A stretch of 24,148 nucleotides of DNA, taken from a virus. Lineage: Duplodnaviria; Heunggongvirae; Uroviricota; Caudoviricetes. Each line of letters opens with the position of its first letter. The first letter of the stretch is position 1. The DNA is taken from positions 1 to 24,148 of the IMG/VR virus record IMGVR_UViG_2778261504_000003; one strand, 5' to 3'. Below the pieces are notes generated by a model. The model was not told where the DNA came from. It saw only the letters and a list, made by a program, of their open reading frames with translations, and made no database searches. The translations under genes and the position numbers were made by a program. Below are positions 1 to 13,873 of this stretch, piece after piece.

Positions 1-350
1 ACAGCGTTCTGTACTTCAGGGGCCAGCTTGTCAAAAGTGACGTTCATCGGATCGGATTCAGTCTCAACCGGGACAAAGGAAGCAGACTCCTCATCCCAGC
101 GGTTTTCCTGCATATATTCAGCATCCCAGGAATCGAGGGCAGGGCGGGGTATACCGGGTTTATCCTCGCAAACAAGAAATTTATAAGCGCAGTCCTGAGC
201 AGCCGGATATTGCTCCAGGAATTGCCAGGTAAATTTGGCACGGGCGCGGCGTTCGTCACCGGCTTCAATGGCAGTGGCTACAGCAATTGCACCTTCTTCC
301 TTTATTGCCTGTTCGTCCGGAATGGCGGCGCAAATAAAGACTTTACTCAT
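1..350 (-). CDS. Early-left operon protein, partial (C-terminal part continues beyond window start); unknown function
   Basis: Minus-strand ATG at 348-350 (reverse complement reads MSKVFICAAIPDEQAIKEEGAIAVATAIEAGDERRARAK...), GAGG about 9 nt upstream, open to the window edge. Lies downstream of ydfD in the same operon direction. Not in the ORF track because no stop is inside the window. Confidence 0.6.
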   Translation of the reverse strand, partial: MSKVFICAAIPDEQAIKEEGAIAVATAIEAGDERRARAKFTWQFLEQYPAAQDCAYKFLVCEDKPGIPRPALDSWDAEYMQENRWDEESASFVPVETESDPMNVTFDKLAPEVQNA

Positions 351-443
351 TTTGTTTTAACCTCATGACATATTTAAGGATGAACAAATCCCTGCCATTG
401 CTGGCATATAAGAATGAAATCGGATGTTTATTACGGAACTGTT

Positions 444-635
444 TTAAAGACCTGCCGGGATTTCGTTATTATCCTGGTGAATAACTTTATCGACCGGGTA
501 ACAGTTACCGGGAATTTTCTGTTCGGTTGCTGCAGTCACACACTCCTGCATTGTCCTGTGAACACTGACTGCAATATCAACTGGCTCTCCGGAAACAAGA
601 AAAACTGTCAGAACAAGTGCAAATGCTGTATTCAT
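444..635 (-). CDS. ydfD: YdfD-like small membrane/lysis protein (63 aa)
   Basis: Internal Met of track ORF 444..689 gives MNTAFALVLTVFLVSGEPVDIAVSVHRTMQECVTAATEQKIPGNCYPVDKVIHQDNNEIPAGL, matching my memory of E. coli Qin YdfD. Its ATG overlaps the dicB stop (ATGA), implying translational coupling. Confidence 0.75.
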   Translation of the reverse strand: MNTAFALVLTVFLVSGEPVDIAVSVHRTMQECVTAATEQKIPGNCYPVDKVIHQDNNEIPAGL

Positions 636-820
636 TGCCAGCATCCTTTTTGTATCGGACGTAAACGGGCCAGCATTGAAAGAATGCATATTTTATTTAA
701 TAGCTCCCGTTCGTGTTTTCTCTTGTTAATGGCATCTTCAGTAAATACAGGGTTACTGATAGTGACACCAATTTCAAAACAACCTTCAGACGTATTAACG
801 TTTGGTAATAACGTTTCCAT
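632..820 (-). CDS. dicB: Cell division inhibitor DicB (62 aa)
   Basis: Internal Met of track ORF 632..925 gives METLLPNVNTSEGCFEIGVTISNPVFTEDAINKRKHERELLNKICILSMLARLRPIQKGCWQ, near-identical to remembered E. coli K-12 DicB. Lies about 170 nt downstream of DicF as in the K-12 dicB operon. Confidence 0.85.
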   Translation of the reverse strand: METLLPNVNTSEGCFEIGVTISNPVFTEDAINKRKHERELLNKICILSMLARLRPIQKGCWQ

Positions 821-989
821 TATCGCGTCCTCAACAATGAATTTTGTGATGCGGTGCCTGGTGCCTCCAGGTGACGTTAACCAGTTAACAATTAACGCCG
901 GATACAGAGAATCCACCCATAACACTGTTTTTGGTTTTAACTGTTCCGCGTGCGCTCAGCCGCATTCACCGCATCACAAAATTCACTTT

Positions 990-1047
990 AAAAAGGGCGG
1001 CAGAGCAGTCACGGAGTAAAACTGATACCGCCAAACGTCACCAGAAA
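990..1047 (-). ncRNA. dicF: DicF small regulatory RNA (ftsZ-targeting sRNA of the dicB operon) with its 3' stem-loop and U-tail
   Basis: Reverse complement of 990-1047 reads TTTCTGGTGACGTTTGGCGGTATCAGTTTTACTCCGTGACTGCTCTGCCGCCCTTTTT, which matches the DicF sequence as I remember it. It ends in a GGCGG...CCGCC stem followed by a U-run. Position between ydfC and dicB is as in Qin. Confidence 0.85.
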
Positions 1048-1380
1048 ATTGATAACAGAGGGCGTTGCAGCGGGGTTGTCACTTAAGCGTATGGTCAACC
1101 TGACAACCCGGTGTCCTCAACGGGGAAGGAATAACCCCGCCATACTTACCGCCGCGCCATTTCGCGGAGTGCCACAACCGGAAGCGCACGGTCGACGAAA
1201 ATTTAACGACAGGCTATCTATGAACCAACAACCTCGCCGTGCGCTTTCGCGTTATGCTCTGACTTTTCAGAGAAATATCCTTTCAGTAAACTGTCAGTGC
1301 CGGATGTTCACCCGTGTCCGGCGCACGCACTCCATTTCACCCGTGGAGAACTCCTTAATTACCAACCCTCAGGAGGGTGA

Positions 1381-1614
1381 ATGTTAAAATCAACTCTTAT
1401 TGCTAAATGCCTTTATCAAAATCGCATGGTAAGCAGCATTTCAATAGGCGAGTCTGCAGTTAAAAGTATTTTCGAAGAGTACTTTCCCGGGCATGATTTT
1501 AATAAATGGAATACCAAATTACCGCCAGCAGTTTCAACGCGTATTCTGAAAGCAACTGAAAGAGCAAGTACAATTCGCGTTAACTATTTCATTAAAGATT
1601 TGTGGGATCTTTGA
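1381..1614 (+). CDS. Hypothetical protein (77 aa), antisense to the early-left operon, inside the AT-rich insert
   Basis: ATG at 1381 directly preceded by AGGAGG (1371-1376). A 77-codon ORF in AT-rich DNA is unlikely by chance. Its 3' end overlaps the 3' end of the convergent 135-aa ORF by 23 nt. No recognisable family. Confidence 0.4.
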   Translation: MLKSTLIAKCLYQNRMVSSISIGESAVKSIFEEYFPGHDFNKWNTKLPPAVSTRILKATERASTIRVNYFIKDLWDL

Positions 1615-1999
1615 TATCCACAGAGCCTAAAGTATGTGCATATGGATGTGCTATTGTGCGCCCTCGCAGATTTGCATCATTTTCTAAATTCACTGAACGA
1701 AACAGGGCATCAACAAGGCTCTGTACAATGCAAAGGCAATCGAAGACTGTCGCCGTTTCTGTTTTGATTGATGAAAGAACATGGCCATTCACGCAAACAG
1801 AAATTACCCGTTTATTAACATCGCTTTCCTGCTTTTGATTATCAGAACCATATAGCCCAGAAAAAGCATTGCGCACATTACGAACCATATTATCGATGGT
1901 TTCTTTTTTGGTGTATGCCGGGTCAATTTTCACCAGACTATCACCGAGAGTCGTTGCAGCAATTGTCTGGATTTCTTTTGGTAAATCTTTAAATTCCAT
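1592..1999 (-). CDS. Hypothetical protein (135 aa) inserted in the dicB operon between ydfC and DicF
   Basis: Minus-strand ATG at 1999 with GAGG 6 nt upstream, 22 nt after the ydfC stop and in operon orientation. AT-rich relative to flanks. No recognisable family. Confidence 0.5.
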   Translation of the reverse strand: MEFKDLPKEIQTIAATTLGDSLVKIDPAYTKKETIDNMVRNVRNAFSGLYGSDNQKQESDVNKRVISVCVNGHVLSSIKTETATVFDCLCIVQSLVDALFRSVNLENDANLRGRTIAHPYAHTLGSVDIKDPTNL

Positions 2000-2021: not shown

Positions 2022-2240
2022 TTAACGCGGGTATGTAATCATTCTGGCAATGCTTAATGCCGCTGCTTTTTCCAGCCTGGTGATATCCTGCTCCAGAGCG
2101 GACAGATTTTCAGCCTGCTTAGCCCTGGCTTCATTGGCCCATTTCAGATCCTGCGCTGCATTAATTTTCTGGCGCATCCACTCATAAAGTTCATCATCGG
2201 TATAGTCTGGCGCGATGATGACGGGTTCTCGTTTCTGCAT
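2022..2240 (-). CDS. ydfC: YdfC-like protein (72 aa)
   Basis: MQKREPVIIAPDYTDDELYEWMRQKINAAQDLKWANEARAKQAENLSALEQDITRLEKAAALSIARMITYPR matches remembered Qin YdfC in sequence and length; position after ydfB. Confidence 0.8.
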   Translation of the reverse strand: MQKREPVIIAPDYTDDELYEWMRQKINAAQDLKWANEARAKQAENLSALEQDITRLEKAAALSIARMITYPR

Positions 2241-2269: not shown

Positions 2270-2398
2270 TCAGCCGTTAGATTTTGCCGAACTGGAAAGC
2301 GCCTGTTTAAATTCGTTGAAGCTGTGAGCTTCTTCGCCTTCGGCAAGGCCTTCGAAGTATTCTTCGTAAGCCTTTTCCATGATTGTGTCAAAATCCAT
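2270..2398 (-). CDS. ydfB: YdfB-like small acidic protein (42 aa)
   Basis: Hand translation of the minus strand: MDFDTIMEKAYEEYFEGLAEGEEAHSFNEFKQALSSSAKSNG. Starts immediately after the ydfA stop. Below the size cut-off of the ORF track. Confidence 0.7.
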   Translation of the reverse strand: MDFDTIMEKAYEEYFEGLAEGEEAHSFNEFKQALSSSAKSNG

Positions 2399-2399
2399 A

Positions 2400-2555
2400 T
2401 CACTCACCTGAGTTTCTTTCCAGCCAGCGACGGGCACCATTTTCGGTTTTAAACGTTTTGCTTTTGGTATACGTCATTGCGGTGAAGGTGCCGTCCTGGT
2501 TTGGAAACACGCCGTACACCAGAGATTCGTTGTTGCCAAGATCGATAGTATCCAT
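2400..2555 (-). CDS. ydfA: YdfA-like protein (DUF1391-type, 51 aa)
   Basis: Hand translation of the minus strand: MDTIDLGNNESLVYGVFPNQDGTFTAMTYTKSKTFKTENGARRWLERNSGE. First gene after the repressor terminator, as in Qin. Confidence 0.7.
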   Translation of the reverse strand: MDTIDLGNNESLVYGVFPNQDGTFTAMTYTKSKTFKTENGARRWLERNSGE

Positions 2556-2633: not shown

Positions 2634-2662
2634 ATGGTAAAACTATTGGTTTTATTGGTCAA
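2634..2662 (-). promoter_or_regulatory. Candidate sigma70 promoter of the ydfABC-dicF-dicB operon with overlapping operator-like repeats
   Basis: On the minus strand: TTGACC, 17-nt spacer, TACCAT. Overlaps the repeats CTATTGG / TCAATAG (2643-2665), which resemble the AACTATAGG half-sites in the repressor/cro intergenic region. Confidence 0.35.
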
Positions 2663-2695
2663 TAGACAATGGAACATAAAGTTTTATTTGTGAGG

Positions 2696-2725
2696 ATAAA
2701 AAAAGCGCCAGGGAGGCGCTTTTTT
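2696..2725. terminator. Bidirectional intrinsic terminator between the repressor gene and the dicB-operon promoter
   Basis: A-run, GCGCC, AGGGA loop, GGCGC, then TTTTTT. Reads as hairpin plus U-tract on both strands. Confidence 0.6.
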
Positions 2726-2733
2726 CATGTAAC

Positions 2734-3144
2734 TTATTGTTTTTGAATATCATTGATTATGTCGTATACATCGTTTTTTAGAAGATCCATTTCATGAAGA
2801 ATGCTTTTTGTGTGCATGATTAGTCTCAGCTTTTCCGTTTCTGGCAACTGATTAAAAAGGGACAATAGCGCCTTTTCTTTGTCGTCAAGCTGGATTAGTG
2901 GTGGTGCATCTTCTTCCTTTGAATGTTCATTTAGCGGCATAAAAAACCAATGTTCTGGTTTTCCTGTTACCGCGGCAAGTCTTTTTAATCTTTCTCCGCT
3001 GGCAATGGTTTCTCCTGTTGCCCACTTACGCACAGCGGTATGGGACAGCATAACCTTTTTAGCCAGACCGGCTAACGACCAGCCATGTTCGCTCATTGCT
3101 TGCCGAACTCTCTCAGCAAATATTGGATGGTTTATTTTACTCAT
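2734..3144 (-). CDS. Prophage repressor, DicA-like (XRE-family HTH, 136 aa)
   Basis: N-terminal HTH (GWSLAGLAKKVMLSHTAVRKWATGE) and C-terminal LLSLFNQLPETEKLRL motif resembling DicA (LLELFNALPESEQ). Divergent from the Cro-like gene, upstream of ydfA as dicA is in Qin. Confidence 0.85.
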   Translation of the reverse strand: MSKINHPIFAERVRQAMSEHGWSLAGLAKKVMLSHTAVRKWATGETIASGERLKRLAAVTGKPEHWFFMPLNEHSKEEDAPPLIQLDDKEKALLSLFNQLPETEKLRLIMHTKSILHEMDLLKNDVYDIINDIQKQ

Positions 3145-3229
3145 TTTTTAAGTATACAACCAAAGGTTTCACCAATCAGCAAAACTATAGGTTTTGTGTT
3201 GAAACTTATAGTTTTTGATGGTAGCGTAG
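3145..3229. promoter_or_regulatory. Divergent promoter/operator region between the repressor and Cro-like genes
   Basis: AT-rich 85-nt intergenic region with an imperfect inverted repeat AAACTATAGG ... CTTATAGTTT (3182-3215) and GTTTCA / TGAAAC half-sites. Confidence 0.5.
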
Positions 3230-3256
3230 GTGAAATTAATAGTACTGGTGGAAAGT

Positions 3257-3532
3257 ATGAGTAATCAAATTCACGATAAGATCTCTAAAAAAATGTCGAA
3301 AACTGACATTGGCAAACACTTTGGCATTAGCTCCCAGGCCGTAGGCAAGTGGTTCATTAAAGGCAAGGTTCCTGCTGAACGCGTGTCGTCACTCTGTGCA
3401 TTACTGAATTGGGAAATTACTCCCCACGAACTTCGCCCTGACATTTATCCCAACCCAACAGATGGACTACCTTGTGAAAATAAGTGTATGTCGAATGAAT
3501 CACTGGCGGTGAACAATGATATTCACTCCTGA
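3257..3532 (+). CDS. Cro/DicC-like HTH regulator
   Basis: HTH near the N-terminus (KTDIGKHFGISSQAVGKWF), divergent from the repressor. Start is ambiguous: GTG 3230, ATG 3257 or ATG 3293. Confidence 0.7.
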   Translation: MSNQIHDKISKKMSKTDIGKHFGISSQAVGKWFIKGKVPAERVSSLCALLNWEITPHELRPDIYPNPTDGLPCENKCMSNESLAVNNDIHS

Positions 3533-4037: not shown

Positions 4038-4983
4038 ACGCCCACTGGTTATTAACACGCAGCTGGCGATGAAAATTGGTCTGAACGAAGCCATCGTGTT
4101 GCAGCAGCTGCATTACTGGTTGAGAGATACCGGTTCCGGCATGGAATGTGATGGTGTTCGCTGGATTTATAACACAACAGAACAATGGCTGGAACAGTTC
4201 CCGTTCTGGTCAGAGTCAACGTTAAAACGCGCATTTGCAAGTCTGAAAGCGCTGGGGCTTTTGCGTTGCGAAAAGCTCAACAAATCAAAGCGTGACATGA
4301 CTAATTTTTACACGATTAATTACGAGAGCGAGCTTTTAGATGGTGGCAAAGTGAGCGAATCCATCAGGTCAAAATGCGCCGCTCCATCAGGTCAAAATGA
4401 CACGATGGAAGAGGCCAAAATGACACGCTCCATTGGTTCAAAACGACACAATGTCATCGGGTCAAAATGGCCTGATGATCTTACAGAGAATACAACAGAG
4501 ATTACTACAGAGAATAAAAACACTTCTCGTCCGGAAGCTTTGCAACCGGACATGCAGACGGCTGAACAGGATTTTTTGACCCGACATCCTGACGCGGTTG
4601 TGTTCAGTGCGAAAAAACGCCAGTGGGGCAGCCAGGAAGATTTAGCGTGTGCGCAGTGGATCTGGGGACGAATCGTGAGTCTTTACGAGCAGGCTGCCAG
4701 CGATGATGGCGAAATCATGCGACCGAAAGAACCCAATTGGACTGCATGGGCCAATGATGTGCGCACAATGCGGATGCTGGATGGCAGAACTCACAGACAA
4801 ATTTGCGAAATGTTTGGTCGGGTGCAGCGGGATCCCTTCTGGGTAAAAAACGTCATGAGCCCGTCAAAGCTTCGCGAAAAATGGGATGAGCTGGTTATTC
4901 GTCTGGGGCGTTCGCCTGTACAGCGTTGCGTGAATCACATTTCTGAACCGGACACCGAAATTCCGCCGGGGTTCAGGGGGTAA
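4015..4983 (+). CDS. Phage replication initiation protein (N-terminal replisome-organizer-like wHTH; C-terminal DnaT-like region)
   Basis: LVINTQLAMKIGLNEAIVLQQLHYWL...WIYNTTEQWLEQFPFWSESTLKRAFASLKALGLL is typical of phage replication initiator N-domains. Position after cro/cII analogues. Start at ATG 4015 (GGATGGAA upstream) preferred over 3964. Confidence 0.65.
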   Translation: MMSLLFAERPLVINTQLAMKIGLNEAIVLQQLHYWLRDTGSGMECDGVRWIYNTTEQWLEQFPFWSESTLKRAFASLKALGLLRCEKLNKSKRDMTNFYTINYESELLDGGKVSESIRSKCAAPSGQNDTMEEAKMTRSIGSKRHNVIGSKWPDDLTENTTEITTENKNTSRPEALQPDMQTAEQDFLTRHPDAVVFSAKKRQWGSQEDLACAQWIWGRIVSLYEQAASDDGEIMRPKEPNWTAWANDVRTMRMLDGRTHRQICEMFGRVQRDPFWVKNVMSPSKLREKWDELVIRLGRSPVQRCVNHISEPDTEIPPGFRG

Positions 4984-5025
4984 GTGTTGATTTGAGGTTA
5001 TGAAGTTATTTTCTCAGGAGAGTTT

Positions 5026-5427
5026 ATGGGGGCTATTTATACCGAAGAACAGCGGGAAAGATTACAGCGTCACATCGTTGACCTTGTACGTAAAAACGGG
5101 CGTATGACAATGCCACAACTGGCATCGACAACATATGCTTCACATGATTCCATTCGCCGGTACCTGAAGATGCTGGTGAGCCAGGGCGAAGTGTATGTTG
5201 TCAGCGGAAAAGGGGTGTTCCTTTCAGAGGGAGTTTACCGTGAATGGCTGGCAAGTTCGGCAAGAAAAGCAAGGGTTATCCGCAAACCAGCACAAAAACA
5301 GGGTAAAGCCGGAGCACAACCCTACGACCGGCACCAGAACATAATTTGCCGTGAGTGCCGTCAGAGTGAGGTTATGCAGCGTGTACTGGCGTTCTATCAG
5401 GGAGATTTTCAGGAGGTGATGGTGTGA
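5026..5427 (+). CDS. Hypothetical early protein with a probable winged-helix DNA-binding N-domain (133 aa)
   Basis: AGGAGA 7 nt upstream of ATG. TMPQLASTTYASHDSIRRYLKMLVSQGEV resembles a wHTH recognition helix. Basic, Cys-containing C-terminus. Confidence 0.6.
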   Translation: MGAIYTEEQRERLQRHIVDLVRKNGRMTMPQLASTTYASHDSIRRYLKMLVSQGEVYVVSGKGVFLSEGVYREWLASSARKARVIRKPAQKQGKAGAQPYDRHQNIICRECRQSEVMQRVLAFYQGDFQEVMV

Positions 5428-5723
5428 GGGTAAGGGTTTATATCGCTGGTCCGATGACCGGGTATAAAAATTTCAACCGTGAGGCGTTCCACAATGCGGA
5501 AGAGGAACTGAAACGGGAAGGGCATACAGTCTTAAACCCGGCAGTACTTCCAGACGGGCTGACACAGCCACACTACATGGATATTTGCATGGCAATGATT
5601 CGTTGTGTGGATGCGATTTACATGCTGAAAGGCTGGCAGTGGTCAACAGGCGCTAAGGCAGAACTGGCACTGGCGGAGAAGCTGGGGCATGCAGTTATTT
5701 TCCAGGAGGCAAACAGTGAGTAA
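5424..5723 (+). CDS. DUF4406-family protein (nucleoside 2-deoxyribosyltransferase-like fold), 99 aa
   Basis: N-terminal VYIAGPMTG motif and ...NPAV... WQWSTGAKAELALAEKLGHAV pattern characteristic of DUF4406. GTG start overlaps the upstream stop (GTGA); AGGAGG upstream. Confidence 0.7.
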   Translation: MRVRVYIAGPMTGYKNFNREAFHNAEEELKREGHTVLNPAVLPDGLTQPHYMDICMAMIRCVDAIYMLKGWQWSTGAKAELALAEKLGHAVIFQEANSE

Positions 5724-8759: not shown

Positions 8760-9077
8760 TTAACAGATTGACTGAATTCCGTTTTTCTCAACCACAGAAA
8801 GCAAACGAAGGGCAGGGCCACCAGGGCGCTTTATTCCCCTTTCCCAGTCTGAAATGAGGTTTTTACTGACATTAAGATATCTGGCGAAAACAGGTTGAGA
8901 CAGATGCTCGCGCTCGCGAAGTGCCCGGATTCTTTCTGGCGACATTGTTGGCGCTGGTTGCAGACAGAGTTCATCAAACTCTCTCATAGTTTGTTTTGTA
9001 ACTGCGCCAATATCCTGAAGTGACTCCATCATTTCATGTACGGATGCAAGTGCATCACTGCGGTAATTTTTACTCAT
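8760..9077 (-). CDS. Type II antitoxin, XRE/HigA-like HTH DNA-binding protein (105 aa)
   Basis: C-terminal HTH SPERIRALREREHLSQPVFARYLNVSKNLISDWERGIKRP. Overlaps the 3' end of the upstream toxin gene by 8 nt. Confidence 0.75.
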   Translation of the reverse strand: MSKNYRSDALASVHEMMESLQDIGAVTKQTMREFDELCLQPAPTMSPERIRALREREHLSQPVFARYLNVSKNLISDWERGIKRPGGPALRLLSVVEKNGIQSIC

Positions 9078-9441
9078 TGGGTACCTCCGTAAACTGACCT
9101 TGCAGGATCAATTGCGCCAGTTGTTCATCAGTAAGATTGAGAACGTGATGCGCAGCTTTTCGAAATGCGTTTTCCTCGATGGCTGTAATATTTTCTCTCT
9201 CATTCTTTGCGTACGCATAGATGAAAAAAGCCTTTTCTGCGACGCGGTAAAAAATTATTGTCCTATAACCGCCTGATTTACCGCCACCTCTTCGGGCTAA
9301 TCGCTGCTTAATGACACCACTACCCAAATCTGCGGATATGAGTCCCTTATCAGCTAGTTCCACGACTTCTCGCAGAGCTTTATCGGAAATCCGATTTTTT
9401 CGTGCGAAGCGTTCAAACCAGGCATTTTTGAAAATGCGCAT
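9070..9441 (-). CDS. Type II toxin, RelE/ParE superfamily (HigB-like gene order, toxin first)
   Basis: Internal Met of track ORF 9070..9585 gives MRIFKNAWFERFARKNRISDKALREVVELADKGLISADLGSGVIKQRLARRGGGKSGGYRTIIFYRVAEKAFFIYAYAKNERENI..., typical of RelE/ParE-fold killer proteins paired with an HTH antidote. Alternative start 4 codons upstream. Confidence 0.75.
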   Translation of the reverse strand: MRIFKNAWFERFARKNRISDKALREVVELADKGLISADLGSGVIKQRLARRGGGKSGGYRTIIFYRVAEKAFFIYAYAKNERENITAIEENAFRKAAHHVLNLTDEQLAQLILQGQFTEVPNE

Positions 9442-12820: not shown

Positions 12821-13873
12821 ATGGTTAATACTGTAAAAATATCCAGTTGTGAGTTAATCAACGCTGATTGCCTGGAATTTATCCAGACCTTACCGGAAAA
12901 CTCTGTCGATCTGATAGTCACAGACCCGCCATACTTTAAAGTGAAGCCCGAGGGCTGGGATAACCAGTGGAAGGGCGACGATGATTACCTGAAATGGCTG
13001 GATCAGTGTCTGGCGCAATTCTGGCGGGTACTGAAACCTGCCGGAAGTCTCTACCTGTTCTGTGGTCATCGCCTGGCATCTGACACCGAAATCATGATGC
13101 GTGAACGCTTTAATGTGCTGAATCACATTATCTGGGCGAAACCGTCCGGGCGCTGGAACGGGTGTAACAAGGAAAGCCTGCGGGCGTATTTCCCGGCAAC
13201 AGAACGCATTCTGTTTGCTGAACATTATCAGGGACCATATCAGCCCAAAAGTGACGGCTATGCGGCAAAAGAAAGGGAACTCAAACAGCACATAATGGCA
13301 CCGCTGATATCGTATTTCAGGGATGCTCGTGCCGAACTGGGTATAACGGCAAAACAAATTGCCGAAGCCACAGGTAAGAAAAATATGGTTTCCCACTGGT
13401 TTGGTGCCAGTCAGTGGCAGTTGCCGAATGAGGCTGACTATCGGAAGTTACAGGCACTGTTTTCCCGTATAGCGGCAGAGAAGTTTCAGGAACAACAACT
13501 GGAACAACCACACCACCAGCTGGTGGCATCTTATGATTCACTGAATCGCAAATATTCTGAATTGCTGGATGAGTTTAAATCTCTCCGGCGCTATTTCTCC
13601 GTATCAGTCTCCGTGCCTTATACCGATGTCTGGACGCATAAGCCCGTTCAGTTCTACCCGGGTAAACATCCGTGCGAGAAACCGGCGGATATGCTCCGGC
13701 AAATAATCAATGCCAGTAGTCGACCTGGTGATCTGGTTGCTGATTTCTTTATGGGATCCGGTTCCACAATAAAAGCAGCAATGGCGCTGGGGCGTCGGGC
13801 GTTAGGTGTTGAACTTGAGTCAGAGCGGTTTAATCAGACGGCGAAAGAGGTAAGTGAACTGGTGGGGAAATAA
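12821..13873 (+). CDS. DNA methyltransferase, N6-adenine/N4-cytosine amino-MTase family (motif IV before motif I)
   Basis: DPPY motif near the N-terminus (LIVTDPPYF) and AdoMet-binding FxGxG motif near the C-terminus (DFFMGSGSTIKAA). Located between Q and the lysis cassette, where lambdoid phages commonly carry a methylase. Confidence 0.85.
   Translation: MVNTVKISSCELINADCLEFIQTLPENSVDLIVTDPPYFKVKPEGWDNQWKGDDDYLKWLDQCLAQFWRVLKPAGSLYLFCGHRLASDTEIMMRERFNVLNHIIWAKPSGRWNGCNKESLRAYFPATERILFAEHYQGPYQPKSDGYAAKERELKQHIMAPLISYFRDARAELGITAKQIAEATGKKNMVSHWFGASQWQLPNEADYRKLQALFSRIAAEKFQEQQLEQPHHQLVASYDSLNRKYSELLDEFKSLRRYFSVSVSVPYTDVWTHKPVQFYPGKHPCEKPADMLRQIINASSRPGDLVADFFMGSGSTIKAAMALGRRALGVELESERFNQTAKEVSELVGK

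Follow-up and report, generated by a model that had tools for sequence, protein, structure and literature searches.

The dicBF module has been described from the defective Qin prophage of Escherichia coli K-12, where the genes run in the order ydfABC-dicF-dicB-ydfDE. The small RNA DicF represses the ftsZ, xylR, and pykA mRNAs and has been reported to be toxic (PMC5069750), and manX is included among the DicF-repressed mRNAs in the legend to Fig. 8 of PMC10448788. K-12 DicB brings MinC to the septum and, together with MinC, inhibits ManYZ, thereby blocking the entry of lambda DNA (PMC6832061). With respect to the lambda control circuit, the dicB promoter dicBp corresponds to PL, and DicA and DicC are the analogues of CI and Cro (PMC10448788).

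Lambda Kil and Rac KilR are likewise small proteins of PL-type operons that block FtsZ-ring formation upon induction (PMC3961180). Kil and DicB have no sequence relationship; the target of Kil is FtsZ/ZipA, DicB works through MinC, and lambda lacks an sRNA partner. Several copies of dicF or dicBF are also found in large lambdoid prophages of EHEC O157:H7 (CP-933M, O, and P, and the Sakai prophages) (PMC5069750), which are described as defective elements. In 2016, Balasubramanian et al. found neither DicB nor DicF in ~2,000 phage genomes and suggested that the module persists in defective prophages (PMC5069750). In 2023, Ragunathan et al. reported that the functional temperate phage mEp460_ev081 carries dicB, dicF, dicAC, and rem (PMC10448788).

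Here, we analyzed a 24,148-nucleotide stretch of IMG/VR record IMGVR_UViG_2778261504_000003 (hereafter, the window). Our data indicate that it very probably carries a canonical dicBF module, which belongs to the early-left operon (the PL equivalent) of a lambdoid prophage of E. coli and works as it does in K-12. No sequence evidence contradicting the identification of the module was seen. The module and its immediate surroundings comprise the following features:

1..350, minus strand: 5' part of an exonuclease gene (open frame from the ATG at 350; synteny in relatives)
444..635, minus strand: ydfD (DUF1482), 63 aa (Pfam DUF1482, E 3.7e-25; 93.7% identical to K-12 YdfD)
632..820, minus strand: dicB, 62-aa cell-division inhibitor (Pfam, NCBIfam, and K-12 comparison)
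821..994, minus strand: DicF-dicB spacer, 174 nt (same length as in K-12)
995..1047, minus strand: dicF, 53-nt Hfq-type small RNA (Rfam RF00039, K-12 alignment, and fold)
1048..1369, minus strand: leader of the DicF precursor, ~320 nt (nearly identical to K-12 along its full length)

DicF is the only above-threshold Rfam match when the entire window is scanned. It matches RF00039 at positions 995-1046 over the whole model (1-52 of 52), with 76.7 bits against a gathering threshold of 48 (E 1.4e-15). An alignment with the Qin region of MG1655 revealed that all 53 nucleotides are identical to K-12 dicF (0 substitutions), the pairing (seed) region included. In the predicted fold, the 5' part is single-stranded and is followed by a hairpin at 996-1032 and a U tract at 990-994 (CUUUUU), so that the RNA combines a K-12-like pairing region with a 3' end resembling a Rho-independent terminator. 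The fold energy of this short hairpin is not significant by itself (z -1.6); the hairpin belongs to the consensus structure of the matched Rfam family. The preliminary description of this DNA had proposed, for positions 632-1047, a DicF with a terminator-like 3' stem-loop and a DicB about 170 nt downstream, and both elements are borne out. That span begins exactly at the dicB stop codon and ends at the 5' end of DicF, and 174 nt separate the DicF 3' end (995) from the dicB ATG (820).

The RNA sequences flanking DicF are conserved as well. The leader is predicted to be structured (z -3.4), and it contains a stem formed by an inverted repeat (1179-1191/1237-1249) ~137 nt upstream of DicF. Section 6 of PMC10448788 reports that RNase III produces a 190-nt DicF species at that leader site and that RNase E subsequently shortens this species to 53 nt. 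Close to the dicB ribosome-binding site, on its upstream side, the spacer contains a perfect, long-range inverted repeat of 19 bp (arms at 838-856 and 967-985), and the spacer folds much more stably than shuffled sequence does (z -5.6). Reading the alignment by eye, we found only 2 differences from the K-12 spacer, both inside the 19-bp helix. These changes convert a C-G and a G-C pair into G.U wobbles, and the pairing of the helix is therefore preserved.

DicB is likewise full length. It matches Pfam PF05358 along positions 1-62 of 62 (E 1.7e-37; 127.4 bits versus a cut-off of 27) and NCBIfam NF049927 with 132.7 bits versus a cut-off of 100. Together with the full-model RNA match, these values greatly exceed what chance would produce and agree with the earlier proposal that both dicF and dicB are intact. 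Window DicB shares 55 of 62 residues (89%) with K-12 DicB; the 7 differences fall at positions 2, 36, 47, 54-56, and 61. Since 5 of them lie within the last 16 residues (the C-terminal tail is RLRPIQKGCWQ in the window versus RLRLMPKGCAQ in K-12), it could be argued that this allele is functionally altered, for example in its specificity for MinC, ZipA, or ManYZ. We consider such an alteration very unlikely. In an alignment of 24 full-length representatives, all 7 substitutions occur in family-variable columns, and none of the 31 conserved columns (19 invariant, 12 near-invariant) is altered. Moreover, an allele 98% identical to that of the window represents a cluster of 689 members, and the functional phage mEp460_ev081 carries an almost identical DicB (61 of 62 residues). 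Our search for a solved DicB structure on which the C-terminal substitutions could be mapped returned none. Comparison with K-12 thus uncovered neither divergence in the DicF seed nor the loss of a conserved DicB residue. A homology search with DicB recovered just 152 clusters among 5.8 billion proteins, nearly all from Escherichia or Shigella and a few from Salmonella and Citrobacter.

The module lies in an operon of the Qin type. dicF, dicB, and their operon companions all occupy the minus strand in the order ydfA-ydfB-ydfC-dicF-(174 nt)-dicB-ydfD-exonuclease, with one extra cassette between ydfC and the leader. The ydfD start overlaps the dicB stop (ATGA). The exonuclease gene extends past the left end of the window (the gene annotated as exonuclease in syntenic relatives measures 2472 nt), and its start is intact, whereas its Qin counterpart is the pseudogene ydfE. 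Overall, the leader and the 174-nt spacer are near-identical to those of Qin, and YdfA, B, C, and D are 94-100% identical. The upstream part of the operon contains:

2022-2240, minus strand: ydfC (98.6% identical to K-12; tblastn with K-12 proteins)
2270-2398, minus strand: ydfB (95% identical to K-12; tblastn)
2400-2555, minus strand: ydfA (100% identical to K-12; tblastn)
2662..2634 (region 2634..2685), minus strand: candidate early-left promoter TTGACC-17 nt-TACCAT, the putative dicBp/PL equivalent (consensus match)

The dicBF-type early-left operon opens with ydfA, ydfB, and ydfC. A simple promoter scan found 6 sites versus 6.6 expected in shuffled sequence and was not enriched, and so our proposal of an early-left promoter is based on its position and on its overlap with operator-like repeats. 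The 14-nt motif AAAACTATAGGTTT occurs 11 times in the window (with up to 3 mismatches) versus 1.9 times expected, and 9 of the 11 occurrences are clustered either upstream of ydfA (2639-2743) or between the repressor and Cro-like genes (3156-3215). We infer that these clusters may represent PL- and PR-type operators, respectively.

The immunity region itself departs from Qin and includes the following elements:

2696-2728, minus strand: hairpin terminator 3' of the repressor gene (hairpin repeat)
2734..3144, minus strand: prophage repressor, 136 aa, HTH only (Pfam HTH_3)
3156-3215, plus strand: putative PR/PRM-like operator cluster (AAAACTATAGGTTT cluster)
3230-3532 (start probably 3257), plus strand: Cro-like gene of the YdaS family (Pfam YdaS_toxin)

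The repressor shares 30% identity with DicA, and its score with the NCBIfam DicA model (47.6 bits) is under the cut-off of 101; Pfam detected no S24 peptidase domain in it. We also considered the Cro-like gene as a candidate DicC and rejected this assignment, as the two show no similarity and the gene is of the YdaS type instead. A homologue of the Rem antirepressor is absent both at the syntenic position and across the window, and Qin-type control by DicA, DicC, and Rem is accordingly missing from the window. Judged by sequence, its immunity cassette is heteroimmune relative to Qin. The window contains no LexA box (CTGT-N8-ACAG), and for this reason we do not propose an SOS-linked route of induction. 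The sequences flanking the immunity cassette are again Qin-like: ydfA borders it on one side, and the other side has a YdaT-like gene that shares 90% identity with K-12 YdfX at its N-terminus. As a separate observation, across the five loci that we compare below, the dicBF arm was seen with three kinds of immunity: DicA/DicC, an S24-peptidase CI with a P22-type Cro, and the HTH repressor with YdaS.

The likeness to Qin that had been claimed for this locus therefore holds for gene order and strand; it does not extend to the heteroimmune repressor/Cro pair, the lack of Rem, or a cassette inserted upstream of the DicF leader. Relative to K-12, this cassette is a clean 634-bp insertion of two ORFs between the ydfC stop and the DicF leader:

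1381..1614, plus strand: orf77 (ORF list; phrog_10348, E 1.1e-47; annotated in RefSeq relatives)
1592..1999, minus strand: orf135 (insertion versus K-12; phrog_1363, E 3.8e-47)

orf135, which is missing from K-12 Qin, runs in the direction of the operon, and orf77 lies on the opposite strand, convergent with it and overlapping it by 23 nt at the 3' ends. orf77 has a strong Shine-Dalgarno sequence (AGGAGGGTGAATG) at the edge of the DicF leader, and our search for its promoter found no convincing candidate. The orf135 family comprises 52 clusters in which the N-terminal ~50 aa are conserved (17 invariant columns) and the C-terminus is hypervariable, with at least 5 unrelated C-terminal domains. 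We compared this slot at five loci (the window, L008/L009, L010, L011, and mEp460_ev081). At all five, a forward gene with the N-terminus MEFKDLP... is followed by a small convergent ORF, and the gene pair is situated between ydfA/ydfC and the DicF leader. The convergent ORFs (77, 63, 69, 80, and 66 aa) differ from one another, save for an MPNKP start in two of them, and each is preceded by a strong Shine-Dalgarno sequence.

One explanation that we tried for this cassette is that orf135 is merely a 201-aa gene truncated by the insertion of orf77. We rejected it as a full account because a convergent partner, different from orf77, also accompanies the 201-aa form. Searches of Pfam, NCBIfam, PADLOC, and PDB sequences returned no match for orf135 or orf77, and the variant partner proteins from the other loci had no match in Pfam or PADLOC. 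The available copies of the cassette are nearly identical, and AlphaFold2 models were unusable for both proteins (pLDDT 56 for orf77 from a single sequence; pLDDT 48 for orf135 with a 24-sequence alignment). The slot might hold an uncharacterized polymorphic two-gene system, such as toxin/immunity, exclusion, or anti-defense, although we regard this as a rather improbable reading. Transcription of the reverse gene would start inside the DicF precursor, on its antisense strand, and so this gene could also modulate DicF/DicB output; orf77, which lies within the transcription unit but on the other strand, could hamper read-through toward dicF.

The modules that surround dicBF are deleted in Qin, whereas those of the prophage in the window are intact. 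An O-like replication initiator was identified (phrog_391, E 7e-96) that shares 94% identity with the replication protein of mEp460_ev081, and RusA and a Q-like antiterminator are present. Among the lysis genes, the holin and Rz were matched, with an endolysin ORF between them; this ORF has no Pfam match and owes the name GH24 solely to how RefSeq annotates a prophage of E. coli JB2 that is 99% identical. The packaging and head genes encode HNH, TerS, TerL, portal, prohead protease, and major capsid proteins, and they are accompanied by head-tail connectors, a tail tube, and a tail assembly chaperone. The genes for immunity, replication, antitermination, lysis, packaging, and head are all intact, and their lengths equal those in the JB2 prophage.

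The earlier proposal of a complete phage is thus upheld for replication, Q, lysis, packaging, head, and proximal tail; the integrase, excisionase, and distal tail lie outside the window. "Apparently complete" is a fair description of the prophage, yet it is an extrapolation from the genes in the window. It may be that this prophage is defective, like Qin and the CP-933 elements, that the module is a remnant, and that completeness is an illusion created by viewing 24 kb, an alternative that we consider unlikely. In line with it, the integrase, excisionase, attachment sites, tape measure, tail tip, and tail fibers all fall outside the 24-kb window, and most E. coli prophages are defective, as stated in the introduction of PMC6832061. 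In addition, an exact match to the entire window was found in none of the collection's complete genomes; the best two cover 98% of it and differ at the dicB site. However, all comparable genes in the window are full length with strong family matches, and the 99%-identical JB2 prophage, which adjoins potC, spans from integrase to tail fibers. The phage collection also contains two near relatives, mEp460_ev081 and vB_EcoM-606R7, the latter covering 54% of the window at 96.7% identity.

Comparison with these relatives and with the EHEC elements illustrates how the module is combined with other sequences. mEp460_ev081 (LR597641.1) is almost base-for-base the same as the window from the DicF leader through ydfD. 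Downstream, the phage continues with the same exonuclease, excisionase, and integrase genes. In contrast, its repressor is only 27% identical to that of the window, and another variant of the forward/reverse cassette occupies the position upstream of the leader. The EHEC O157:H7 elements differ from the window in their immunity and late regions through mosaic exchange. In the JB2 prophage, DicF and the spacer are kept, and kil stands precisely in place of dicB-ydfD; one breakpoint of this swap falls a few bases before the dicB start and the other immediately after the ydfD stop.

The window provides an intact RNA and protein with conserved order, leader, stems, and spacer, and work in K-12 supplies the regulatory and functional steps of the model that we propose for a canonical dicBF module. 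In the lysogen, the 136-aa HTH repressor would bind the operator repeats over the promoter upstream of ydfA and keep the operon nearly silent. Derepression would then give one long transcript encompassing ydfABC, orf135, the DicF leader, dicF, dicB, ydfD, and the exonuclease gene. RNase III would cut the leader stem ~137 nt upstream of DicF and RNase E would trim the product to the 53-nt DicF, with the terminator-like hairpin forming the 3' end. DicF, with Hfq, would base-pair with the ftsZ, xylR, pykA, and manX mRNAs. DicB would recruit MinC to the septum, so that FtsZ rings are blocked, and the DicB-MinC complex would inhibit ManYZ and exclude phages that inject their DNA via ManYZ. Given that the repressor is 30% identical to DicA and that no DicC or Rem homologue accompanies it, the K-12 regulation may not transfer to this prophage. 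The inhibition of division and the protection from phage that the preliminary description had attributed to the module are indeed documented in the literature (PMC5069750, PMC6832061).

We envision the module as a functional counterpart of lambda kil that may delay division in early lytic growth, an analogy supported by the replacement of dicB-ydfD by kil in the JB2 relative. Leaky or stationary-phase expression may also give the lysogen some phage exclusion. We know of no phage for which a role of DicF or DicB in its own lytic cycle has been shown.

A related possibility, to which we give some credence while not favoring it, is that the module benefits mainly the lysogen in the manner of a moron. 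Low-level, stationary-phase, or stochastic expression would then provide exclusion by DicB and tuning of metabolism and morphology by DicF, and selection on the host side would explain how widespread the module is. Indeed, in K-12, DicF accumulates in stationary phase and ~1% of cells spontaneously switch dicBp on (PMC10448788), and protection from lambda by DicB (PMC6832061) also favors a benefit to the lysogen. The distribution of the module fits as well: at least 80% of the 416-nt module is covered in 3838 of 5426 complete E. coli genomes, often in multiple copies and including decayed prophages such as Qin. Any match to the module was found in 4648 of the same genomes, with a per-genome median of 2 places and a maximum of 9. 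Yet the module is placed and oriented as a gene of the early-left operon without a promoter of its own (none was found; PMC10448788), it is retained in phages isolated as particles, and at the same site a close relative has kil, the classic lytic-phase inhibitor of division. A benefit to the lysogen and a lytic role are not mutually exclusive.

These distribution data also bear on the novelty that had been implied for a dicBF module in an apparently complete phage. The module present here is already known and ordinary: the majority of E. coli genomes carry it, as do functional phages that have been isolated, a fact published in 2023. Copies 100% identical over the 416 nt are found in several bovine and human E. 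coli genomes. Of the 50,697 records in the phage collection, 20 encode DicB and 22 encode DicF.

Collectively, the window adds one intact dicBF copy to thousands and in this respect matters little. The inserted cassette is the sole mildly interesting difference from Qin, and it belongs to a hypervariable, uncharacterized slot. More broadly, the dicBF left arm recombines freely with differing immunity cassettes, and directly downstream of DicF, dicB-ydfD is exchangeable for kil.

Compared with the cryptic K-12 prophage Qin, the immunity cassette of the window (region 2634-3215) is heteroimmune, with a repressor only 30% identical to Qin DicA and a Cro of the YdaS type. An operator-like motif, AAAACTATAGGTTT, is common to two clusters, one at 2639-2743, upstream of ydfA, and the other at 3156-3215. 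The repressor contains no S24 domain, and neither a LexA box nor a homologue of the Qin antirepressor Rem was found within the window.

The upstream side of the DicF leader is adjoined by a two-gene slot, the contents of which proved to be hypervariable across the five loci compared.

Two-gene slot in the window and in comparison loci (own coordinates)
1370-2003, window: orf135 (1592-1999, minus) and orf77 (1381-1614, plus)
4964-5498, L005
2501-3275, L008
2501-3349, L010
2501-3263, L011

In the forward gene, i.e., that read in the operon direction, the N-terminal ~50 aa (MEFKDLP...) are conserved, whereas the C-terminal domains are unrelated between loci. It is accompanied in every locus compared by a small convergent ORF that varies by locus and has a strong SD. 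The slot gene variants had no match in the family libraries searched (Pfam and PADLOC, and for the window pair also NCBIfam and PDB sequences).

Two further features were noted elsewhere in the window.

8760-9441, minus: RelE-family toxin (Pfam PF06296) and HTH antitoxin pair
12821-13873: type II-like DNA methyltransferase

With the replication genes on one side and the DUF968/RusA/Q genes on the other, the toxin/antitoxin pair is oriented opposite to the early-right genes. The methyltransferase has no adjoining restriction gene; it separates the Q-like antiterminator from the holin, at the location occupied by stx in Stx phages.

Within the module itself, a perfect 19-bp long-range inverted repeat (arms 838-856 and 967-985) encloses most of the DicF-dicB spacer, a short distance 5' of the dicB ribosome-binding site. 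When the alignment with K-12 was read by eye, the repeat displayed two changes only, giving G.U wobbles. We postulate a possible role for it as a second RNase III element or in the control of dicB translation. Near the end of the 254-kb record of the Aeromonas jumbo phage AP1 (GenBank MT713136.1), 247 bp (249906-250152) also match the E. coli DicF-spacer region at 98% identity; an artefact of assembly or contamination is the probable cause, not genuine transfer.

In one related locus (L011, 3843-4697), dicB is directly preceded by an inserted antirepressor-like gene with Phage_ASH and Phage_pRha domains. Furthermore, we compared window positions 380-1400 with L003 (13380-14290), the E. coli JB2 prophage (99% identical), which is the closest relative of the whole window. 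In JB2, a Rac-type kil gene exactly substitutes for dicB-ydfD and is placed directly 3' of the retained DicF and spacer, with DicF carrying one A-to-G change in its 5' part. Division inhibitors of analogous function are exchanged at one site.
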